Positions 45,313 through 59,056 of a stretch of DNA of 64,000 bases are shown here, piece after piece. The notes below the pieces were generated by a model that ran no database searches, was not told the DNA's origin, and saw nothing but the letters and a program-made list of their open reading frames with translations. Each line of letters starts with the position of its first letter. The first letter of the stretch is position 1. Made by a program: the position numbers and the translations under genes. Source of the stretch: Nitrospirota bacterium (GTDB taxonomy: Bacteria > Nitrospirota > Nitrospiria > 2-01-FULL-66-17); NCBI GenBank assembly GCA_049325335.1, contig JBMOMC010000002.1, positions 46,612 to 110,611 of the forward strand, read 5' to 3'.

Positions 45313-47745
45313 TCACTGCGCCGCGATGATCCAGTTGAGGATGGTGGCGTAATCCGCGTCCGTGGCGGCCAACGGCGCGGGATTCACCGGCTGGCCGTTG
45401 CGGACCATCGGCACCACGCCGGTGCCTTTGACGAACAGCAGGCTATTGGCCGGGTTGGTCACGTTCACGCGGGCCGCGGTCGCCCCAAAGTCGCCTTCGG
45501 GGTCTCCGGTCAGCACGAAATTGCTGTCGCCGCCCGCCACGTGACAACTCGCGCACCGTCGTTGCAAGATGGGCTGAATCGTGGTTTCGAACACGGTCTC
45601 GTCCAGATTCGCCCGGCCCGGATTGGTGATGACGTCGTAGTTGCTGAACTGCGCGCCCAGATCGATCCACTCCACGATGGTGCGTTTATCTTGGGCCGAC
45701 AACATCCCGGCGTGGTTATTGGCGTCGGTGGCCGGCAAGGCCACGGACGAACGGAGTTCCTCGCCGAAGATGCGCTCGACCAGATGGCTTTGGCGTGATT
45801 CCCCGGGCTGCACGAGGTCGGATCCGTCCGACTCCATTTCGCCGCCGAGCAGGGTGGTGTACGAGATCGGGAACCCGAGGCCCGACACATCGCCGCTCAA
45901 ATCAAGATTCCCGCTCGGGGTGGTTGACGAGTGGCACGACACGCATTCCGCGTCGAAGATCGTCTGCACGTGGTCCGTATAGTCAATGACCGCGATGGTG
46001 GGCGGCGTGTACACGGACGGCGCGCGGTTGAGCGCGATCGAATCCGCGGCTGCGCGTTGCGGCTGACCGCGACGCGGCGAATGGCAGCCGTTGCAGGTCC
46101 GGCTTTCGCCGGGCCGCACCTGCAGCCAGTTTTCCTTCACCTTAAACGACCGTCCCTCATTATCGACCACGTGCAAGGTCAGGGACGTGTCGGCCGGGAC
46201 CGTGACCCGGAACGAGCCGTCCGCTTCGACCGGGGCATATCCCAGGATTTTTTGGCGCTCGAAGTCGGTGAGCCCCATGTCTTCGACCCCCACCCCGGGC
46301 TGGCTCGGCACCGCCTGGACCACTCGAACCTGTCTGACCACTTGCAGCGACGCGTCGCCGACCAGCGCCGCGAAGTCGATGTTGCCGCTGCCGTCGCGCG
46401 GAATGGTCACCCCCAAGACGCTGTTCGACAACGCGCGGTTGGCTTCGGAGTCGTACACGCTTGTTGCCGCGAGCACGCCGGTTGTCCCGGTCCGGTTCGC
46501 AGGTGTACTGGGCTTGGTCGAGGGGATATCGCTGGCGGCCACGGCCATCAACGGCACCGGCTCCACGTAGACCTGCTGGGTTCCGGCGTTCGGCACTTTG
46601 ATGGGTTTGAGCGTTCCGTCCGCGTTGTTGAGCATCCAGATGCCATACCGAGCCTCTTCCCCCTCGGTCACCACCCCGGTATCCTCGTCTTCCATATCTT
46701 CGACCACCTCACCGGTCGAGTAGGAGACCAGGTAGCGGTTGGTCCCGTCCGGCACCGGGTACACGTTGTGATACCGGCCGACCTCGGAGGCTTCCCGGCC
46801 GGTGGGAATCACTTGGCTTCCGGTCAACTGGAGCGACGAGGTGTTGGGGTTGTCGGCTTCCGCCGCCACGTCGACCACGCCGATGGCGCCGCCTTCAAAC
46901 GTGCCGGTCAATGGCATCATGGTGCCGACCATTTGCCCATCCGGGAGCTCCCGGATGTCCAAGAACGAGTTCACCCCGGAATGGGATCCGTATTTGACGA
47001 ACATGTCGGTTCCGTCCGGTCCCATCACGAACATGGGGAACTTGTTTTCTCTGCCCAAGTGTTCCCAACGACTGAACGCAATGTTCCCGTCGCGCAGGAC
47101 AATCGGGTTGCGGTCGTGGCTTTGATTAAACGAAATCTGGACCACCTCGCCGCCGTCGCACGACGGTTGGGACGACGACACCGGTTGCGTGCGATCCAGC
47201 ATGTGCAGCACGGTGGATCGCCGGCGTTCGTATTCGTCGAGGTGCCCGGGTCGATCCGAGGAGAACACGATTCGGCCGTCGGGCAGGTACTGCGGATCCA
47301 CTTCGTTTGACGAACCGCACGTGAGCTGGACCGGATCGCTCACCCGCGTCCCGTCCGCGTTCACGTCCACTTCGTACAGATGCCACCGGTCCGCGCTGCT
47401 GGTGCGCATCGCGAACACCACCCGAAACTGCTCGTCGGTGGTCTGGGCGAACACCTCCGGATCGCTCACATCGCCGACCCCGTTCGTGACATCACCCGTG
47501 AGGTTTCGTAGGGTGCCGGATGGGGTGGCGGGCACCAGAGTCATCAGATCGCCGCCTGGTTCGAAGCGAATGGGATCCAATGGGTCACCAATCGCGTCGA
47601 GGCTCCGCGCCGCAAAGACGATCCCAGGGATGTCTTCCTGCGCGACCGGGCTCTCTCCGGTTCCGCAGGACCACGCGGCAACCCCGCCGACCAGGGACAA
47701 CGCGCCCCAACGGATCCACTTCATCGTTTGTGCGTGCAGTCGCAT
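45313..47745 (-). CDS. secreted beta-propeller (TolB/PD40-like) protein with three CxxCH haem-binding motifs
   Basis: Signal peptide; PD40-like repeats (LPDGRIVFSSDR); CNGCH, CVSCH, CASCH; ATG 47745 with GAGGA upstream. Confidence 0.65.
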   Translation of the reverse strand: MRLHAQTMKWIRWGALSLVGGVAAWSCGTGESPVAQEDIPGIVFAARSLDAIGDPLDPIRFEPGGDLMTLVPATPSGTLRNLTGDVTNGVGDVSDPEVFAQTTDEQFRVVFAMRTSSADRWHLYEVDVNADGTRVSDPVQLTCGSSNEVDPQYLPDGRIVFSSDRPGHLDEYERRRSTVLHMLDRTQPVSSSQPSCDGGEVVQISFNQSHDRNPIVLRDGNIAFSRWEHLGRENKFPMFVMGPDGTDMFVKYGSHSGVNSFLDIRELPDGQMVGTMMPLTGTFEGGAIGVVDVAAEADNPNTSSLQLTGSQVIPTGREASEVGRYHNVYPVPDGTNRYLVSYSTGEVVEDMEDEDTGVVTEGEEARYGIWMLNNADGTLKPIKVPNAGTQQVYVEPVPLMAVAASDIPSTKPSTPANRTGTTGVLAATSVYDSEANRALSNSVLGVTIPRDGSGNIDFAALVGDASLQVVRQVRVVQAVPSQPGVGVEDMGLTDFERQKILGYAPVEADGSFRVTVPADTSLTLHVVDNEGRSFKVKENWLQVRPGESRTCNGCHSPRRGQPQRAAADSIALNRAPSVYTPPTIAVIDYTDHVQTIFDAECVSCHSSTTPSGNLDLSGDVSGLGFPISYTTLLGGEMESDGSDLVQPGESRQSHLVERIFGEELRSSVALPATDANNHAGMLSAQDKRTIVEWIDLGAQFSNYDVITNPGRANLDETVFETTIQPILQRRCASCHVAGGDSNFVLTGDPEGDFGATAARVNVTNPANSLLFVKGTGVVPMVRNGQPVNPAPLAATDADYATILNWIIAAQ

Positions 47746-47942
47746 AGCGTCCTCGTTTCTCGGGGTGAAGAGTGGGTACATGGCTCGTCGCATAGGTGCA
47801 AATCGCATGCGAGGCTCGGTGTGGAGCTCGATCGCGGCCGCGGGGGCGAAACGCTCGATTGCCGGCTTGTCGTTGTTCGAACATGGACATCGGATTCAAA
47901 AATGGTGATGACCCTTCCATGGGTAATTACCATCCGGTGATG

Positions 47943-49717: not shown

Positions 49718-50335
49718 TTACTTCGACGGTTTTTCCTGAATAGCCTCGATCTCCAATTTGATCTTCACCGTATCACCCACCACGAGGCCGCCCTTATCCA
49801 AGGTCTTGGTCCACTGCATGCCGAAATCTTTGCGGTTGATGACGCCTTCGCCGCTAAATCCCACACGGGTATTCCCGTACGGGTCGGCCACCGCCCCGTT
49901 GAACGTCCCGGTGAGCGTCATCTCTTTTGTGACGCCGAGCAGGGTGAGGTCACCGATCGCGGTGTACTGATCGCCCGCCTTGGTGTACCTCTTCATTTTG
50001 TACGTCATGGTCGGGTGTTTGGCGACGTGAAAGAAGTCGGGACTCTTCAAATGGTCGTCTCGTTTTTTGTGGTTGGTGGTCACGGAAGCGGTCTGGATCA
50101 CCGCGTCGATGGATTTAACCTCTTTCGTGTCGGGGTCCATGACCACCGATCCCGACAACTCCGTAAATCGCCCGGTGGTCCGGGAGACCACCATATGGGC
50201 CACGTCGAACCCGACGATCGAGTGGTCGAGGTCCACGTTGAACCGCGCAACCTCGGCATACACGGCGTTCGGAAGCCACGCAACGGCCGCCGCGACCGCA
50301 AACAGACGCGCCCATCCTGGGAAAACGTGACTCAT
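49718..50335 (-). CDS. YceI-family periplasmic protein
   Basis: Signal peptide; YceI-like pattern; AGGAGGA RBS before ATG 50335. Confidence 0.75.
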   Translation of the reverse strand: MSHVFPGWARLFAVAAAVAWLPNAVYAEVARFNVDLDHSIVGFDVAHMVVSRTTGRFTELSGSVVMDPDTKEVKSIDAVIQTASVTTNHKKRDDHLKSPDFFHVAKHPTMTYKMKRYTKAGDQYTAIGDLTLLGVTKEMTLTGTFNGAVADPYGNTRVGFSGEGVINRKDFGMQWTKTLDKGGLVVGDTVKIKLEIEAIQEKPSK

Positions 50336-50478
50336 CGTGTCCTCCTGTGCCTGTTGTCCTTGGTGTGTGGCGTCGAAGCCGAGGGATGCTAGCCATGAGG
50401 ACATGAGCTTGTCAAGCGGGCCCGCGCGACGCGTCGGGGAGTTGACAGGCGAGCGGAAGCTGGTATGTCCATACCATC

Positions 50479-51321
50479 ATGACGATGATTCACGGCGCGG
50501 ATGGAGCCGCTAGGCGGCGCCCCAACAAATGGTTCGTGGCCGTGTGGCGCGCGATCTGCAAGTGGAGCGTGCGTCCCGTTGCGGACCGAGGCGATGTGCG
50601 TGAGACGCGGGCCCCCCGCGCCGCGGCCGGTTATACCGTGGATCTCGCCGAAGCGTTGCAGGTTCTTCGGCACGCCGGGTATCCGGAACCGCCCAACCAC
50701 GTCCGATCCGAGAATGCCCGAATCGAATACGTGTTGCACGCCTTGTGCGAATTGACGATCCATGACGGCTTGACCGGTCTGGTCAACGCCCGGCAGTTCA
50801 TGACCGTGTTGGAACAGGAGGTGGAACGATCGTTCCGGACCGGACAGCCGTGTTCATTGCTGCTGATCGACTTGGATCATTTTAAGGCGATCAACGATCA
50901 CCGCGGGCACGTGGCCGGCGATCAAGCGCTTCGGATGGTGGGGCGTGTGATGAAGTCCGGAACACGCACCATGGACACTGCGGCACGCTACGGCGGCGAG
51001 GAGTTCGCGGTGCTGCTCCCGAACACGTCGCGGGACAGCGCCGCGAAAATCGCCGAGCGACTCAGATGTCACATCGCGCAGGAGGCGGTGCCGGTCGAGG
51101 GCGGCGCGTTCCACGTGACGTGCAGCATCGGCATGGCCTGTCTGAGTGGTCAAGCCCGTCGCACCGGAACGGAATTCATCGCGATGGCCGACGAACAGCT
51201 CTACCGCGCGAAACACCAGGGCCGGAACCAAGTGTGCTGCGACGAGGAACCCGCGCTCGCGCTGACTCCGAACGAGCGGCTGGCCTTGTCGAATCGAACC
51301 CGCGGCACGGAGGGGATGTGA
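50479..51321 (+). CDS. GGDEF-domain diguanylate cyclase
   Basis: Canonical RYGGEEF active site. Confidence 0.85.
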   Translation: MTMIHGADGAARRRPNKWFVAVWRAICKWSVRPVADRGDVRETRAPRAAAGYTVDLAEALQVLRHAGYPEPPNHVRSENARIEYVLHALCELTIHDGLTGLVNARQFMTVLEQEVERSFRTGQPCSLLLIDLDHFKAINDHRGHVAGDQALRMVGRVMKSGTRTMDTAARYGGEEFAVLLPNTSRDSAAKIAERLRCHIAQEAVPVEGGAFHVTCSIGMACLSGQARRTGTEFIAMADEQLYRAKHQGRNQVCCDEEPALALTPNERLALSNRTRGTEGM

Positions 51322-52133
51322 TGAGCACAACCATGCAACGGGCCCGCGTCATCGCGGTGACCAGTGGGAAAGGCGGCGTCGGCAAAACGCTCCTCACCGC
51401 CAACCTGAGTTATTGTCTGGCGCAGGCCGGTCACGCGGTGTTGGTGGTGGACGCGGATTTTGGTCTGGCCAATCTGGACATCATGCTTAATCTCAGTCCG
51501 TCGGCCACGCTCCATGACGTCATCGTCGGCGCCAAATCGCTCGACGAGGTGATCATCGACGGACCCGGCGGCATCCGGATCGTGCCGGCCGCGTCCGGGA
51601 TGGCCGAGTACACTCGGATGTCCGCGGACTTTCGGGACGCGTTGGTGGAGACGCTCGCCGCGCTCGCCGCGCGGTACGACTACGTGTTGCTCGATACCGG
51701 CGCCGGGATTTCCGACGCGGTGTTGTACACCACGTCGTTGGCGGATGAGGTGATCATTGTGGCGACGCCGGACCCGACCGCCATGACCGACGCGTATGCC
51801 GCGGTGAAACTCATTGCGGGGCAACAGCGGCGGTCATGGCTGTGGTTGTTGGTCAATCAGGCGTCCGACGCCGCGACCGGTACGCGCATCGCACAGCAAC
51901 TTCAGCGCGTAGTCGATCAGTTTCTGCAACCGCAACTGGGGCGTCCGGTCCGGTTGTCCCCTCTGGCCGTGATTCCCGCGGACCCCCGAGCCGGGCAGTC
52001 CGTCTGCGCGCAGCAACTCTTGACGGCCGTGGCCCGGGACTCGAAGGCCGCGCTCGCCATCGCGGACGCGGCCCAACGCCTTCAGGTTCCTCCGGGGGAA
52101 TCCGCCGTACCGCGTGTCGCCAACCAACGGTGA
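51321..52133 (+). CDS. MinD/ParA/FlhG-family P-loop ATPase
   Basis: Deviant Walker A SGKGGVGKT; ATG overlaps the GGDEF gene stop by one base (TGATG). Confidence 0.75.
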   Translation: MSTTMQRARVIAVTSGKGGVGKTLLTANLSYCLAQAGHAVLVVDADFGLANLDIMLNLSPSATLHDVIVGAKSLDEVIIDGPGGIRIVPAASGMAEYTRMSADFRDALVETLAALAARYDYVLLDTGAGISDAVLYTTSLADEVIIVATPDPTAMTDAYAAVKLIAGQQRRSWLWLLVNQASDAATGTRIAQQLQRVVDQFLQPQLGRPVRLSPLAVIPADPRAGQSVCAQQLLTAVARDSKAALAIADAAQRLQVPPGESAVPRVANQR

Positions 52134-52251
52134 CGGGGTCCGCCGGCGCGCGATTTGACGGCCTGACGGGCGGGCGGTACCTTTCCGGTACGCGGGTATC
52201 CGAGATGGGGATGTGTCGCGCGGAGAACGGCTCCGCGCAGGGAGGAACCAC

Positions 52252-53526
52252 ATGACGGTACGTCACGTCGTCGCCGTTGTTTCGGCCGCCTGGGGCGTGG
52301 TTGCCTTGGGCGCGTTAGCGGGCCTTGCCGCGCTGTTCGTTCGATCGGGATCGGTCAGCGCTCCGGCATCGGTCGCCAGTCTTGCCGCGGTGGCCGGCGC
52401 GCTCGCCGCGTTGACCGTGATCGCCATTGGTCTGGCGGCCAGACGCCTGTTCGATCCGATGGCGCGGGCGCTCGCGGATCGGTGGTTGGACGCGCAACGC
52501 TCCGCGCGCGAATTGGAGCGTTCCCACAAAGAATTCGCGATCGTGGCCCGTTACGCGGATTCCTGTACGAAGTTCCAAGACTCCGCGGAACTTTACCGGA
52601 ATCTGACCCATCACATGGCGCAAACGGTCGGCGCCGGCGTGTGTTTCATCATGCGATATGAAAAGGCGTCCAACCGCATGGTGGGTCAAGCCCCGGGATA
52701 CGGGATCGCGGAGGAGGCCATCAAGTCGATCCAGTATGCGGTGACCCCTGCAGTCAAGGCCGTCTGGAACTTCTCGACCCAGGGGAGCCTGCTCAGTAAC
52801 GATCCGCAAGGAGACCGGCGTATCTTGCCCGAGATCACCACCGCATTGGGGCTCTACAACTGCCTGGTGGTCCCGTTCTTTTTCCAGGGGCGCGTGGCCG
52901 GCCTTGTGGTGGCTGCGAATAAACCGCGCTGGTTTACCTACGATGAGGTGCGGATGCTGAGCGCGTTTTCGAGCTACACGTCGCTGGCAGTGGCCAACCA
53001 ACAACTGCAGCAGGAAATGCGGCGGACCATTCGTGACGGCCTCACCGGGTTGTATGCCGCGCATTACTTCCGCGGGTTGTTGGATCAGGCCATCGCGGCC
53101 CAGGAGGCCGGGGGCCGCCACGTCTCGGTGTTGGCGGTGGCCATCGATAATTTTCAGGCGTGCCTGGAGTTGTACGGTCGCTCCGGCGCGGATCGGATCG
53201 TCAAGGAAGTGGCGTCGCGCCTGCTCGGTTACGTGGGCGCCGACGGGTACGTGGCGCGGTACGGAGCCCAGGAGTTCGTGATGGCGTGGCTGGGCCGAGA
53301 CGGGAACGACCCGACGACCGCGGCGGAACGGATCCGCGGGCTGGTTGAGGAACACCCGGTTGCCGTCGACACCGGGATTCCGTTTGCCGTCACCGTGAGC
53401 ATCGGGGTGGCGTCCGCCACCGTTCCGGTCGCTTCCGAACGACTGCTCCACGCGGCCCAGAGCGCGTTGCGTCGAGCCAACCAGAGCGGGAAGAACCACA
53501 TCGTGACGGCCGGCGTCGACGCATAA
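52252..53526 (+). CDS. membrane-anchored GAF + degenerate GGDEF domain protein
   Basis: Two N-terminal TM helices, GAF-like region, GGDEF fold with YGAQEF in place of GG(D/E)EF; GGAGG RBS before ATG 52252. Confidence 0.7.
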   Translation: MTVRHVVAVVSAAWGVVALGALAGLAALFVRSGSVSAPASVASLAAVAGALAALTVIAIGLAARRLFDPMARALADRWLDAQRSARELERSHKEFAIVARYADSCTKFQDSAELYRNLTHHMAQTVGAGVCFIMRYEKASNRMVGQAPGYGIAEEAIKSIQYAVTPAVKAVWNFSTQGSLLSNDPQGDRRILPEITTALGLYNCLVVPFFFQGRVAGLVVAANKPRWFTYDEVRMLSAFSSYTSLAVANQQLQQEMRRTIRDGLTGLYAAHYFRGLLDQAIAAQEAGGRHVSVLAVAIDNFQACLELYGRSGADRIVKEVASRLLGYVGADGYVARYGAQEFVMAWLGRDGNDPTTAAERIRGLVEEHPVAVDTGIPFAVTVSIGVASATVPVASERLLHAAQSALRRANQSGKNHIVTAGVDA

Positions 53527-55140: not shown

Positions 55141-55527
55141 ATGCAAAACCGCATCGTGATCCATTTCGGCGACGGCCGCATCGTCAAAGGCAGCACCGGG
55201 GACTTTTTCCCGAACAAACAGTGGTTTCACTTGGTGGAGAAGGACAGCGGCAAGTCCAATCGCATCGACGTCGCCAAGCTCAAGGGGATTTTTTTCGTCA
55301 AAGACTACGACGGCCAACCGGAATACCGGCATTGCAACGACGTGGAGCGATCCGGGCTTGGGAAACGGGTGAAAGTCAGTTTTAAAGACGGGGAATCGAT
55401 CGTAGGGTATACCTCGGGGTTTTCTCCGACCAAACCGGGTTTTTTCCTCTTTCCCGCGGATGGGAACGGGAACACGGAAAAAATCTTTGTGGTCAGCGTG
55501 GCCACCGAGGAAATCAGTTTTTTGTGA
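55141..55527 (+). CDS. hypothetical protein
   Basis: ATG 55141 with GGGAGGAG RBS; beta-rich, no recognised domain. Confidence 0.45.
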   Translation: MQNRIVIHFGDGRIVKGSTGDFFPNKQWFHLVEKDSGKSNRIDVAKLKGIFFVKDYDGQPEYRHCNDVERSGLGKRVKVSFKDGESIVGYTSGFSPTKPGFFLFPADGNGNTEKIFVVSVATEEISFL

Positions 55528-56586: not shown

Positions 56587-58242
56587 TCAGCGGGCCGGAT
56601 ACGGAGGCAAACTCCGCAGCCGCGGGTCATCAACCGGTCCACCCAGCGTGAAGTGATACAGACTCTGGTACTGGAGTGTCGTCAGTCCCAACACCCGGTG
56701 CATGGGGTCGTCGAAGAAACAGCCGATGCCTGTGCCGCGGATGCCCGTGGCCTCGGCCTCCAAGTATAGGACCTGGCCGACGATGCCGGTTTCCCAAAAC
56801 AGCCTGGGATACGCCCATGCGCCGTCGCGCTGCAAGGGCCGCTCGAACTCCGCGATCATGCCGAGCGCAAAACAGCCGTCGGCCGCAATCGCTTGATGGC
56901 AGGAGACTTGCTCGGCGACTTGCCGGGCATCCCCGGTGAGTAACCGATATAGCGGCAGGCCGTCAGGGCACGCCGCGGGTCGCTCCCAGGCGAACTCCGG
57001 CTTCATGGCCGCGCGGAGGGCCTCCGCCTGCCCGGGCTCTCGTACCAGCAGATAGAGTCCGGGGTCCAGGTCCTGGACGCGATGGACAAAGAGCGCTAAG
57101 TGAACGCGCGGTGTCCAGGGGAGCATGGTGAAGGGGAATTGACCGGGACCGGCCAAGGTCTTGCCCAGAATCTGGTAGAACGCCTCGCGTGTAATGCCGG
57201 TCCGGCCGTCGAACGCCACCGCGCTGCGACGTTGAAAAATCATGTGGCGGAACGGAATCGGCACGGTTCCGATCGCGCGCGGCGGGCCGGCAGGATGAGC
57301 GCTCTCAGCCCCATGAGCGGTTGGCGGCTTGCGGGCCGCGGCGCTCACGCGGTCGATGATGGGCCAGTCCACGTGATCGGGACTCAACGGATTGGGGCGA
57401 CCGTGCCACGACACACTCGCGAACGCGGCGATCGCATCGCTCGGCACCGTCACCGCTCCGCGGGATTCGCCTTGTGGGTAGACCGCGAGCACGCAGTCGG
57501 GGTCCTCGGCTTCGGCGCCGTGAGGATCCCCGACGCCGAGCAACGCCGCCACCTCGTCGCTGCTCAAATCATCCAGGAGGGTTGCCTGCCAGCCCAAACC
57601 CGCGGCCGCCAGGCTCACGGCGGCCATGGCGTGTCCCACGTCGTGCTGGCAATAGCGGTACGCCCGCTCGCCGTACTTCCACGCTTCCCGCCAATGGACC
57701 GACGTCAACCCAATCAACAACACCGCGCTCGGCAACTCCGCGGTCAAGGCTTGCCAGGTCTCCAACGGGACCTCGGCACGGCGTTCCAACGCGTGTTCGG
57801 CGGGCGCGTAGTGGCACACCATCGGCGCAATGCACAATCCCTCGATCGGGCCGCAGATCAGGTACCCTTCAGTGGGATGGAGGTTGCCGCTGGACGGGTT
57901 GATCCGCAACGCCCATGACGAGTCCCCGGCCTGTTTCCAGGCGGAGAGCGCCAGGCTGTCCGAGAAGAGTTGCGACACGGTGCGATGCGTGAAGGGCTGC
58001 GGTACCACGTGGCCTGCGACAAACGCCGGCTCGTAGCGGGGGTCCGGAGTGGGCGCGACGTGCTCCAGCGTGATCAGCGTGGCGCCCGCGTACCGCCGAA
58101 ACGGATCGGGCTGCGTGGCCCAGTCCAAGTGGCCGGGCCCGCGGGCATACGCGTGCAAGTGGTGCTTGGTTGCCTGGTGGTAGGCGATGACTTCCGTGAG
58201 CGTATCAGACGTCACGCTGCCCTGGTCATCGCCGGTCGTCAT
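56587..58242 (-). CDS. SagB-type dehydrogenase / two-domain nitroreductase-family protein
   Basis: N-terminal AYHQATKHH motif typical of SagB/ThcOx-type dehydrogenases; two nitroreductase-like halves. Confidence 0.65.
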   Translation of the reverse strand: MTTGDDQGSVTSDTLTEVIAYHQATKHHLHAYARGPGHLDWATQPDPFRRYAGATLITLEHVAPTPDPRYEPAFVAGHVVPQPFTHRTVSQLFSDSLALSAWKQAGDSSWALRINPSSGNLHPTEGYLICGPIEGLCIAPMVCHYAPAEHALERRAEVPLETWQALTAELPSAVLLIGLTSVHWREAWKYGERAYRYCQHDVGHAMAAVSLAAAGLGWQATLLDDLSSDEVAALLGVGDPHGAEAEDPDCVLAVYPQGESRGAVTVPSDAIAAFASVSWHGRPNPLSPDHVDWPIIDRVSAAARKPPTAHGAESAHPAGPPRAIGTVPIPFRHMIFQRRSAVAFDGRTGITREAFYQILGKTLAGPGQFPFTMLPWTPRVHLALFVHRVQDLDPGLYLLVREPGQAEALRAAMKPEFAWERPAACPDGLPLYRLLTGDARQVAEQVSCHQAIAADGCFALGMIAEFERPLQRDGAWAYPRLFWETGIVGQVLYLEAEATGIRGTGIGCFFDDPMHRVLGLTTLQYQSLYHFTLGGPVDDPRLRSLPPYPAR

Positions 58243-58246
58243 GCCG

Positions 58247-59056
58247 TTATCCCGCGGTGATCACGTCATTGAGCAGCCGACACCCGGCAAAGAGTGTGGC
58301 CTCTTCGTCACGCATCCACCGGCTGATGGCGCCCAGGTAGACGAGTGTGTCCGCGACGGCTTTGATGTCGTGGATCCCGGTGTCCGATTGGGCAACCGTG
58401 GGATTCACCGGTTTGCTGCGATCAATCAGATACCGCAAGAGTTGTCGTTCCGGGCCATGACCAATCTCGGCCGCGAGGCGCTGTACAAAGGGTTCCCACT
58501 GAGGCCGGCCCGTTGCGATCGGATTGTCCCCGTAGTGAAGCAACAACTTGGTCAGATACGGATGGTTCCCGGTCCACGCAGCCAACGGGGGGGCAGTGTC
58601 TTTCCCGATCAGCCGTCGCGTTTCCCCATCAAGGAGGACCGAGAGGGGGAACAGGCGGAACGACACATCAGCCAACATCTGGGTGTCGCCCAAGAGCGTT
58701 CTCAGTCGGCGCCCACCGGTCACCACCAGGCTGGTTGGTTTCGCCGCGCACACTCGCGCGAGCAAGGGGGTGATCACCGAGTCAGTCAGCGCGTCGAGAT
58801 TGTCCAGAACGATGATCGAACCAGGAGACCACTCAGTGTGTGGAGAAGGGATTTCAGCGAGGTCGACCTCGACGGTTGGGCGTGACAGTCCCTGCAGGGC
58901 GGTTCGGACCAGGGAGGTCTTACCCAGCTTCGGCCCGCCGATCACCGCCAGTGACTCGCCCTGCGCGATGCGCCAACGCAGGTTCCGCACGAGGCCCTGC
59001 CGACCGATGAATGTGTCTCCGGTCGTGGGAACGGACGTGAAGGGTGTGATGAACAT
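58247..59056 (-). CDS. P-loop NTPase-like protein of unknown function
   Basis: Walker A-like GGPKLGKTS; 4 nt upstream of SagB-type gene on same strand. Confidence 0.5.
   Translation of the reverse strand: MFITPFTSVPTTGDTFIGRQGLVRNLRWRIAQGESLAVIGGPKLGKTSLVRTALQGLSRPTVEVDLAEIPSPHTEWSPGSIIVLDNLDALTDSVITPLLARVCAAKPTSLVVTGGRRLRTLLGDTQMLADVSFRLFPLSVLLDGETRRLIGKDTAPPLAAWTGNHPYLTKLLLHYGDNPIATGRPQWEPFVQRLAAEIGHGPERQLLRYLIDRSKPVNPTVAQSDTGIHDIKAVADTLVYLGAISRWMRDEEATLFAGCRLLNDVITAG

Follow-up and report, generated by a model that had tools for sequence, protein, structure and literature searches.

Gene organization of the locus

We analyzed a window of 64,000 nucleotides (nt) of a Nitrospirota metagenome-assembled genome (MAG; contig JBMOMC010000002.1 of GenBank assembly GCA_049325335.1, forward strand), in which a gene for a diguanylate cyclase, an enzyme making cyclic di-GMP (c-di-GMP), is directly followed by a gene for an ATPase of the MinD/ParA family. 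The three genes that a preliminary description of this DNA had placed here are all present, on the plus strand. Gene 1 (positions 50479..51321 of the window; 280 amino acids [aa]) encodes a small soluble diguanylate cyclase without a sensor domain, gene 2 (51321..52133; 270 aa) encodes an FlhG/FleN-like MinD/ParA ATPase, and gene 3 (52252..53526), which is lineage specific, encodes a protein with two transmembrane segments, a GAF domain, and a degenerate GGDEF domain. The first two genes overlap by one base in a TGATG stop/start junction (51319..51323, +), the shared A being the last base of the TGA of gene 1 (51319-51321) and the first of the ATG of gene 2 (51321-51323); a Shine-Dalgarno sequence for gene 2, GGAGGGG (51309-51315, +), lies 6 to 12 nt 5' of this ATG. 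The cyclase is made in fixed proportion with the ATPase by translational coupling. Both the junction and the intact GGEEF active site of gene 1 can be read directly from the DNA, as had been described earlier. None of the three proteins scores above the cut-off of an NCBIfam equivalog model. The neighbors of the pair in the window include YceI, MatE, rhodanese, and GGDEF genes.

A cyclase with a bare GGDEF domain

The gene 1 product matches Pfam GGDEF (E = 6.7e-46; 156.4 bits against a cut-off of 23.8) and TIGR00254 (176.6 bits; cut-off, 37.4), the domain being encoded by 50758-51231 (+). The I-site RTMD (residues 163 to 166) and the active site GGEEF (residues 172 to 176), both read from the sequence (50965..51006, +), show the canonical spacing, with RTMD five residues before GGEEF, and the substrate- and metal-binding positions are otherwise kept as DLDHFKAIND and GHVAGD. 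By motif, the protein is predicted to be a competent diguanylate cyclase. Its first 45 or so residues are not conserved in the family alignment, and the true start may therefore lie downstream of the annotated one. The AlphaFold2 model (mean predicted local distance difference test [pLDDT] score, 89.7) has two short helices at the N terminus, then the GGDEF fold, and finally a linker of ~10 residues that leads to a C-terminal helix.

Homologs of gene 1 recovered at the genome loci described below are 31 to 47% identical, and the family members mostly have about 240 to 290 residues, with gene calls of up to 416 aa. GGEEF is present in 75/79 family cyclases and RxxD in all 79 (76 by pattern and 3 read from the sequences). 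GGDEF is the only domain detected in gene 1 and its family, and neither a sensory nor a dimerization domain was found in them. Most diguanylate cyclases carry a sensor or dimerization domain of their own, and to our knowledge the control of many "naked" GGDEF proteins is largely unknown. The best named NCBIfam match of gene 1 after the generic model is SiaD of Pseudomonas aeruginosa, which is likewise a short cyclase without a ligand-binding sensor domain and whose activity is reported to depend on a separately encoded protein (PMC8457831). However, gene 1 scores 159 bits with the SiaD model, whose cut-off is 290, and this match is confined to the GGDEF domain; the partner of gene 1 is a P-loop ATPase, unlike the SiaC-type switch protein.

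An ATPase of the FlhG/FleN branch

The gene 2 product is 100% identical to an NCBI entry named "MAG: MinD/ParA family protein [Nitrospirota bacterium]." It has a deviant Walker A motif, SGKGGVGKT (51363-51389, +), a DAD motif (51450-51458, +), a Walker B motif, LLDTGAG (51687-51707, +), and an insertion given as six residues, QPQLGRP (51927-51947, +). Searches of the PDB with phmmer recovered FleN (E = 1.3e-47) ahead of FlhG (1.6e-39) and MinD (1.6e-27). The AlphaFold2 model (mean pLDDT, 87) was superimposed by Foldseek on FleN-AMPPNP with template modeling scores (TM-scores) of 0.87/0.94, a root mean square deviation of 1.6 Å, and 39% identity. As the best matches in both sequence and fold are FleN and FlhG, we place gene 2 in the FlhG/FleN branch of the MinD/ParA family. 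The protein retains the signature lysine K17, D44/D46, D125, and the equivalents of the FleN dimer contacts (D/E151 and T153). Thus all residues for ATP binding and ATP-sandwich dimerization are kept, and by this token the ATPase is predicted to be dimerization competent.

Other assignments were rejected. MinD shares the fold, the deviant Walker A motif, and, judging from the same residues, probably ATP-dependent dimerization, but the similarity is much weaker (24 to 28% identity), the scores fall below the cut-offs (TIGR01968, 106 < 212.9; TIGR01969, 134 < 201.75; PRK10818, 70.9 < 508), a membrane-targeting helix is lacking, and no min genes, such as minC or minE, lie among the neighbors examined. 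BcsQ also fails on score (TIGR03371, 64.3 < 157.85), with no bcs genes in the flanks examined, and the plasmid ParA and tyrosine kinase readings were rejected on scores and context. A search with PADLOC gave only weak matches local to the P-loop and thus no link to defense systems.

In an unrooted neighbor-joining tree (200 bootstraps), with the flagellar side sampled thinly by FleN and four control FlhG-type proteins, the coupled ATPases, i.e., those next to a cyclase gene, are split from these five proteins in 200/200 replicates. The window ATPase groups with metagenomic relatives (188/200) and is sister to the Burkholderiales set. The phylogenetic placement proposed in the preliminary description therefore yields a separate clade whose defining synteny is the cyclase gene, which is the opposite of a housekeeping clade with a synteny unrelated to the GGDEF gene.

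FlhG is defined by an N-terminal DQAxxLR enhancer helix that stimulates FlhF and by a C-terminal amphipathic membrane-targeting helix (reviewed in PMC12826062). The DQAxxLR helix is found in 0/82 coupled ATPases versus 3/4 FlhG-type control loci, of which L086 alone was checked for flagellar context, and the window ATPase has only 8 residues before strand 1. The C-terminal amphipathic helix is absent from all 82 coupled ATPases, whose median tail after the core is 8 residues, whereas the FlhG-type controls carry GFASFWRQL at this position. The core of the window ATPase ends at the helix of residues 242 to 254; the AlphaFold2 model has no amphipathic helix in the Pro-rich, disordered C-terminus that follows (residues 255 to 270; 52083-52130, +), and its pLDDT falls below 50 at residues 260 to 270. 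The synteny flhA-flhF-flhG-fliA, seen in the control locus L086 in the order flhA-flhF-flhG-fliA-fliM, was not found among the window genes examined around gene 2. The coupled ATPase has thus lost both the FlhF-stimulating helix and the C-terminal helix that its relatives use for the membrane or FleQ. As these two helices and the flagellar synteny are all missing, gene 2 is not a housekeeping FlhG despite the common family branch (E as above; TM-score, 0.82, with FlhG of Geobacillus thermodenitrificans [PDB codes 4rz2 and 4rz3]; other representatives are those of Shewanella and Vibrio); it is related to FleN and FlhG and is a member of neither functional family.

JGI annotations and one or more NCBI records give several close relatives of the coupled ATPase (P0004, P0012, P0086, P0121, P0122, and others) the name "flagellar biosynthesis protein FlhG"; for P0004, so named by its source, the cyclase context was confirmed directly. 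Since the coupled ATPases fail the three features that define FlhG, inferences about flagellation drawn from such annotations can be wrong.

FleN of P. aeruginosa (PDB codes 5j1j, 7ejw, 8p53, and 8pb9) deserves separate consideration, as it shares with gene 2 the fold, the deviant Walker A motif, and the ATP-dimer residues and also acts in a c-di-GMP-linked regulatory circuit. By analogy, the ATPase could be an anti-activator or coregulator of a FleQ-like c-di-GMP-binding factor, or could act on the flagellar C-ring, with the cyclase supplying the c-di-GMP. The best sequence and structure matches, which include FleN-FleQ complexes with and without c-di-GMP, and the "FlhG" labels of some sources are in keeping with this. 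However, residues 254 to 280 of FleN (including RGHLE), which are needed to bind and inhibit FleQ (PMC8528422), have no counterpart in the coupled ATPases, and a FleN-type mechanism is therefore unsupported. Moreover, the conserved partner of gene 2 is a cyclase and not an enhancer-binding protein; neither an enhancer-binding protein nor a flagellar gene is conserved beside the pair or occurs in the region of the window examined; gene 2 is not beside flhF or fliA; and both its separate clade and the distribution of the DQAxxLR helix set it apart. We regard this alternative as quite unlikely.

Conservation of the cyclase-ATPase pair

A scan of one genome per species gave 80 loci encoding relatives of the ATPase. 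A homolog of gene 1 lies directly upstream on the same strand in 74 of these, while 2 are cut at a contig end and 4 are without it. Together with 5 independent contigs, the cyclase homolog is directly upstream of the ATPase homolog in 79/79 assessable loci. Metagenomic relatives of the ATPase at 57% and 54% identity have the pair in neighborhoods that are otherwise unrelated, and starting from the cyclase, the ATPase was found directly downstream in 3/3 loci (one of them an Acidobacteria MAG), with overlaps of 8 to 11 nt. Stop and start overlap in 57 of the 79 junctions (ATGA in 43, TGATG in 11, and a longer overlap of 8 to 17 nt in 3), and the nonoverlapping junctions have gaps of 0 to 29 nt in all but one case. 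These counts bear out the earlier proposal that the ATPase is coupled to the cyclase.

Apart from the pair, the flanks share nothing that is conserved across the set of loci; in Piscinibacter, for instance, the pair is flanked by ordinary housekeeping genes. As a control, we used 80 metagenome loci around generic GGDEF genes, obtained by a scan with the cyclase alignment whose patterns were generic GGDEF motifs, and recovered an ATPase homolog in 0/80. Hence, it is the pair that is conserved as a unit, and the ATPase goes specifically with this subfamily of cyclases. The distribution of the pair spans Burkholderiales, a Gammaproteobacteria MAG, an Acidobacteria MAG, and Nitrospirota, and the hosts include cultivable, genetically tractable Burkholderiales (Variovorax, Comamonas, Rubrivivax, and Piscinibacter/Ideonella).

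That the two genes are merely cotranscribed neighbors without a functional link would agree with one negative result, namely that a profile search found no cyclase-ATPase fusion in the best 150 of 1.84 billion protein representatives; the long second-domain matches in this search were FlhF-FlhG fusions, and the others showed the ATPase domain only. Nevertheless, the retention of the pair across these lineages while the surroundings change, the predominance of overlapping stop and start codons, and the specificity for one cyclase subfamily make this reading highly improbable. Among the representatives, P0189 (1,084 aa) and P0200 (1,163 aa) are natural single chains of an SRP54-type, FlhF-like GTPase and an FlhG-like ATPase.

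The C-terminal tail of the cyclase resembles the FliM peptide

Outside the catalytic domain, the only strongly conserved sequence of the cyclase family is a C-terminal tail with the pattern [VL][ST]xxE[KR]xxL[FL]. It reads LTPNERLALS in the window cyclase (51262..51291, +) and VSAEEKxLLF in the members from Burkholderiales, and three positions (E266, K/R267, and L270) are invariant in 79/79 sequences. The tail is predicted to be helical (residues 264 to 276 of the AlphaFold2 model; mean pLDDT in 10-residue blocks, 61 to 79) and is a candidate peptide for docking on the ATPase. It resembles the N-terminal LSxxEIDALL ("EIDAL") peptide of FliM/FliY. A position-specific matrix built from the cyclase tails and scored against 61,387 background 10-mers gave the FliM N terminus LSQEEVDALL of the control loci L085 and L086 a score of 8.2 bits, in register; only 1 of the 61,387 background 10-mers reached this score, which puts the FliM N terminus in the top 0.002%. 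The EIDAL motif is reported to be necessary and sufficient for binding to FlhG, and FliM raises the ATPase activity of FlhG (bioRxiv 10.1101/2022.04.21.489128). The cyclase tail is thus a candidate EIDAL-like peptide, its resemblance being quantified at the level of sequence and short of a proof of binding. FlhG would then offer, beyond its fold, the further likeness of an ATPase that binds a short partner peptide.

A putative ATP-driven dimerization switch

GGDEF enzymes need two GGDEF domains brought together to make c-di-GMP. We propose, tentatively and with slightly less than an even chance of being right, that the cyclase and the ATPase are a conserved two-protein signaling module in which the ATPase, with the tail as the docking element, switches the cyclase by ATP-driven dimerization. 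The two proteins would form a complex in which the C-terminal helix of the cyclase, as a look-alike of the FliM peptide that binds and stimulates FlhG, docks on the ATPase. ATP-dependent dimerization of the ATPase would then pair two GGDEF domains and permit c-di-GMP synthesis; the domains would come apart again on ATP hydrolysis, which the invariant Lys/Arg of the tail may stimulate. Product feedback through the I-site would limit the output. The ATPase would in this way be the on/off switch, and perhaps the point of input, of a cyclase that has no sensor; in the most speculative step, this switch may take its signals from the product of the variable gene that follows the pair.

Several points weigh against this proposal. 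The resemblance to EIDAL was spotted post hoc over a motif of 10 residues, and the FliM sequences used are tool derived and come from two closely related loci. A physical complex is inferred from indirect signs, and the lack of fusions mentioned above does not favor one. In the structural model, the N-terminal helices of the cyclase might already dimerize it; the ATPase could then act downstream, as a target of c-di-GMP, and not upstream as a switch. The direction of control is accordingly the weakest point of the switch model.

The preliminary description had instead seen in the pair a spatial ATPase that localizes c-di-GMP signaling. In such a system, the ATPase would serve to position the cyclase, at a pole, on the membrane, or on the nucleoid, for a local output of c-di-GMP. 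Positioning is the best-known task of the MinD/ParA family, FlhG and MinD bind and leave the membrane in cycles, and a relation of cargo and adaptor would accord equally well with the conserved pairing and coupling. A conserved basic residue is typical of the activator peptides of ParA/MinD ATPases (MinE and ParB), and that of the cyclase tail would fit. Conversely, the amphipathic helix at the C terminus, to which MinD and FlhG owe their behavior at the membrane, is missing from 82/82 coupled ATPases, the C terminus of the window ATPase being Pro rich and disordered, and we identified no element for binding to a landmark, the membrane, or DNA. FleN, the nearest relative with a solved structure, is a nucleotide-dependent regulatory switch on FleQ and not a positioning system. 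Localized signaling is therefore somewhat weakened as a reading, and we consider it unlikely.

The literature searched, which lacked most subscription journals, yielded no account of a MinD/ParA/FlhG/FleN ATPase with a cyclase as its partner, and the pair is apparently an unstudied, conserved, and testable module. If the switch model were true, it would represent a new control principle for c-di-GMP signaling by means of a P-loop dimerization switch, with a new mode of cyclase activation on one side and a new output or "cargo" for the MinD/ParA/FlhG ATPases on the other. The presence of the module in tractable Burkholderiales makes the model directly testable.

Gene 3 and other genes downstream of the pair

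Gene 3 lies 119 nt downstream of the pair on the same strand. Its open reading frame (ORF) opens at GTG 52213, and the gene caller starts it at ATG 52252, which is preceded by GGGAGG; the latter is most likely the true start, and the gene ends at 53526. In the gap before it, a promoter and terminator scan and RNA folding gave nothing better than shuffled controls (fold z, -0.22). The protein has two hydrophobic transmembrane segments (residues 6 to 30 and 41 to 63; 52267-52341 and 52372-52440, +), a GAF domain (about 52579-52992, +; Pfam GAF_2, 8.4e-12), and a degenerate GGDEF domain (about 53029-53499, +; Pfam GGDEF, 3.9e-24). In the last, IDNFQACLE stands in place of DxDxFKxxND (53140-53169, +), GADG occupies the RxxD position, aligned with RPED of 4zmm (53236-53247, +), and GAQEF (as YGAQEF) is found at the active site (53263-53277, +).

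An ortholog in the related contig L002 is 82% identical and has the same degenerate positions. The substrate and catalytic positions are replaced in both proteins (FK by FQ, ND by LE, and GGEEF by GAQEF/GAHEF), and judging from these positions the gene 3 product is certainly no cyclase. The preliminary description had depicted it as a membrane-anchored GAF-GGDEF protein with a degenerate active site, which is what we find, and had further taken it for a receptor rather than a cyclase. The second half of the latter claim holds, while the receptor half fails at the I-site, whose check had been called for: the RxxD position reads GADG in both orthologs, leaving no basis for a receptor role through the I-site.

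As a c-di-GMP receptor, gene 3 would read the output of the cyclase. Degenerate GGDEF domains can serve as receptors, as in PopA and PelD, and like these, gene 3 keeps the fold with the active site lost and combines it with a GAF domain and a membrane anchor. Its position downstream of the pair on the same strand would suit such a role, as would its strong purifying selection (82% identity between the two Nitrospirota-type contigs versus 75% for the ATPase). Nonetheless, gene 3 lacks the RxxD I-site that defines the PopA/PelD type, its GTP-binding and catalytic positions are also replaced, and outside the two closest relatives it is absent from all lineages that carry the pair. We therefore deem a receptor very unlikely; more plausibly, the protein would act as a sensor or scaffold by way of its GAF domain. 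Gene 3 is outside the conserved module and is lineage specific.

Other lineages have different genes at the corresponding position. The ATPase gene is immediately followed, in the same orientation, by a gene for a truncated (bacterial-like) globin (PF01152) in 29/82 loci (e.g., L070:6765-7172), which are a subset of L031 to L082 from the Rubrivivax, Aquabacterium, Roseateles, and Piscinibacter lineage; the globin gene mostly starts between -13 and +100 nt from the ATPase stop, and some overlap it by 4 nt. A hemerythrin (PF01814) follows the pair in two loci (L089:6667-7089 and L090:2617-3039), and in another the next gene (L003:8824-11166), which has an 8-nt overlap with the ATPase stop, encodes a hybrid histidine kinase containing PAS and several receiver domains. 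The succession of globin, hemerythrin, histidine kinase, and GAF protein hints at a variable sensor protein providing input beside a constant cyclase-ATPase core. The wider scheme, in which an FlhG/FleN-like branch was repurposed as an ATP-driven dimerization switch that captures the cyclase by its EIDAL-like helix, activates it in the ATP-dimer state only, and is set by such neighboring stand-alone sensors, is possible, although we hold it to be doubtful.

Other features of the window

A sigma-70-like promoter was matched only once in the region (TTGACA, an 18-nt spacer, and TAGCAT; 50386-50415, -), at a site overlapping the initial codons annotated for the divergent yceI-like ORF (49718-50404); the promoter scan of the region found no comparable site for the cyclase operon. 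Downstream of gene 3, a DUF6982 protein (PF22478, E = 2e-26; 55141-55527, +) is conserved in the related contig L002. It is followed by a gene for a PAS-GGDEF cyclase with intact motifs (55460/55583-56566, +), which is absent at this position in L002 and brings the number of GGDEF genes in this 6-kb part of the window to three.

At 45313-47808 (-), the window encodes an 831-aa protein with a match to the middle domain of the hydrazine synthase alpha subunit (PF18582, E = 8e-20) and weak, subthreshold matches to c-type cytochromes, which is unusual for a Nitrospirota genome. Finally, a 551-aa protein with two nitroreductase-type stretches (56587-58242, -) adjoins a 269-aa ORF (58247-59056, -), whose counterpart in L002 has a weak nSTAND1 match; this pair of genes is conserved in L002.

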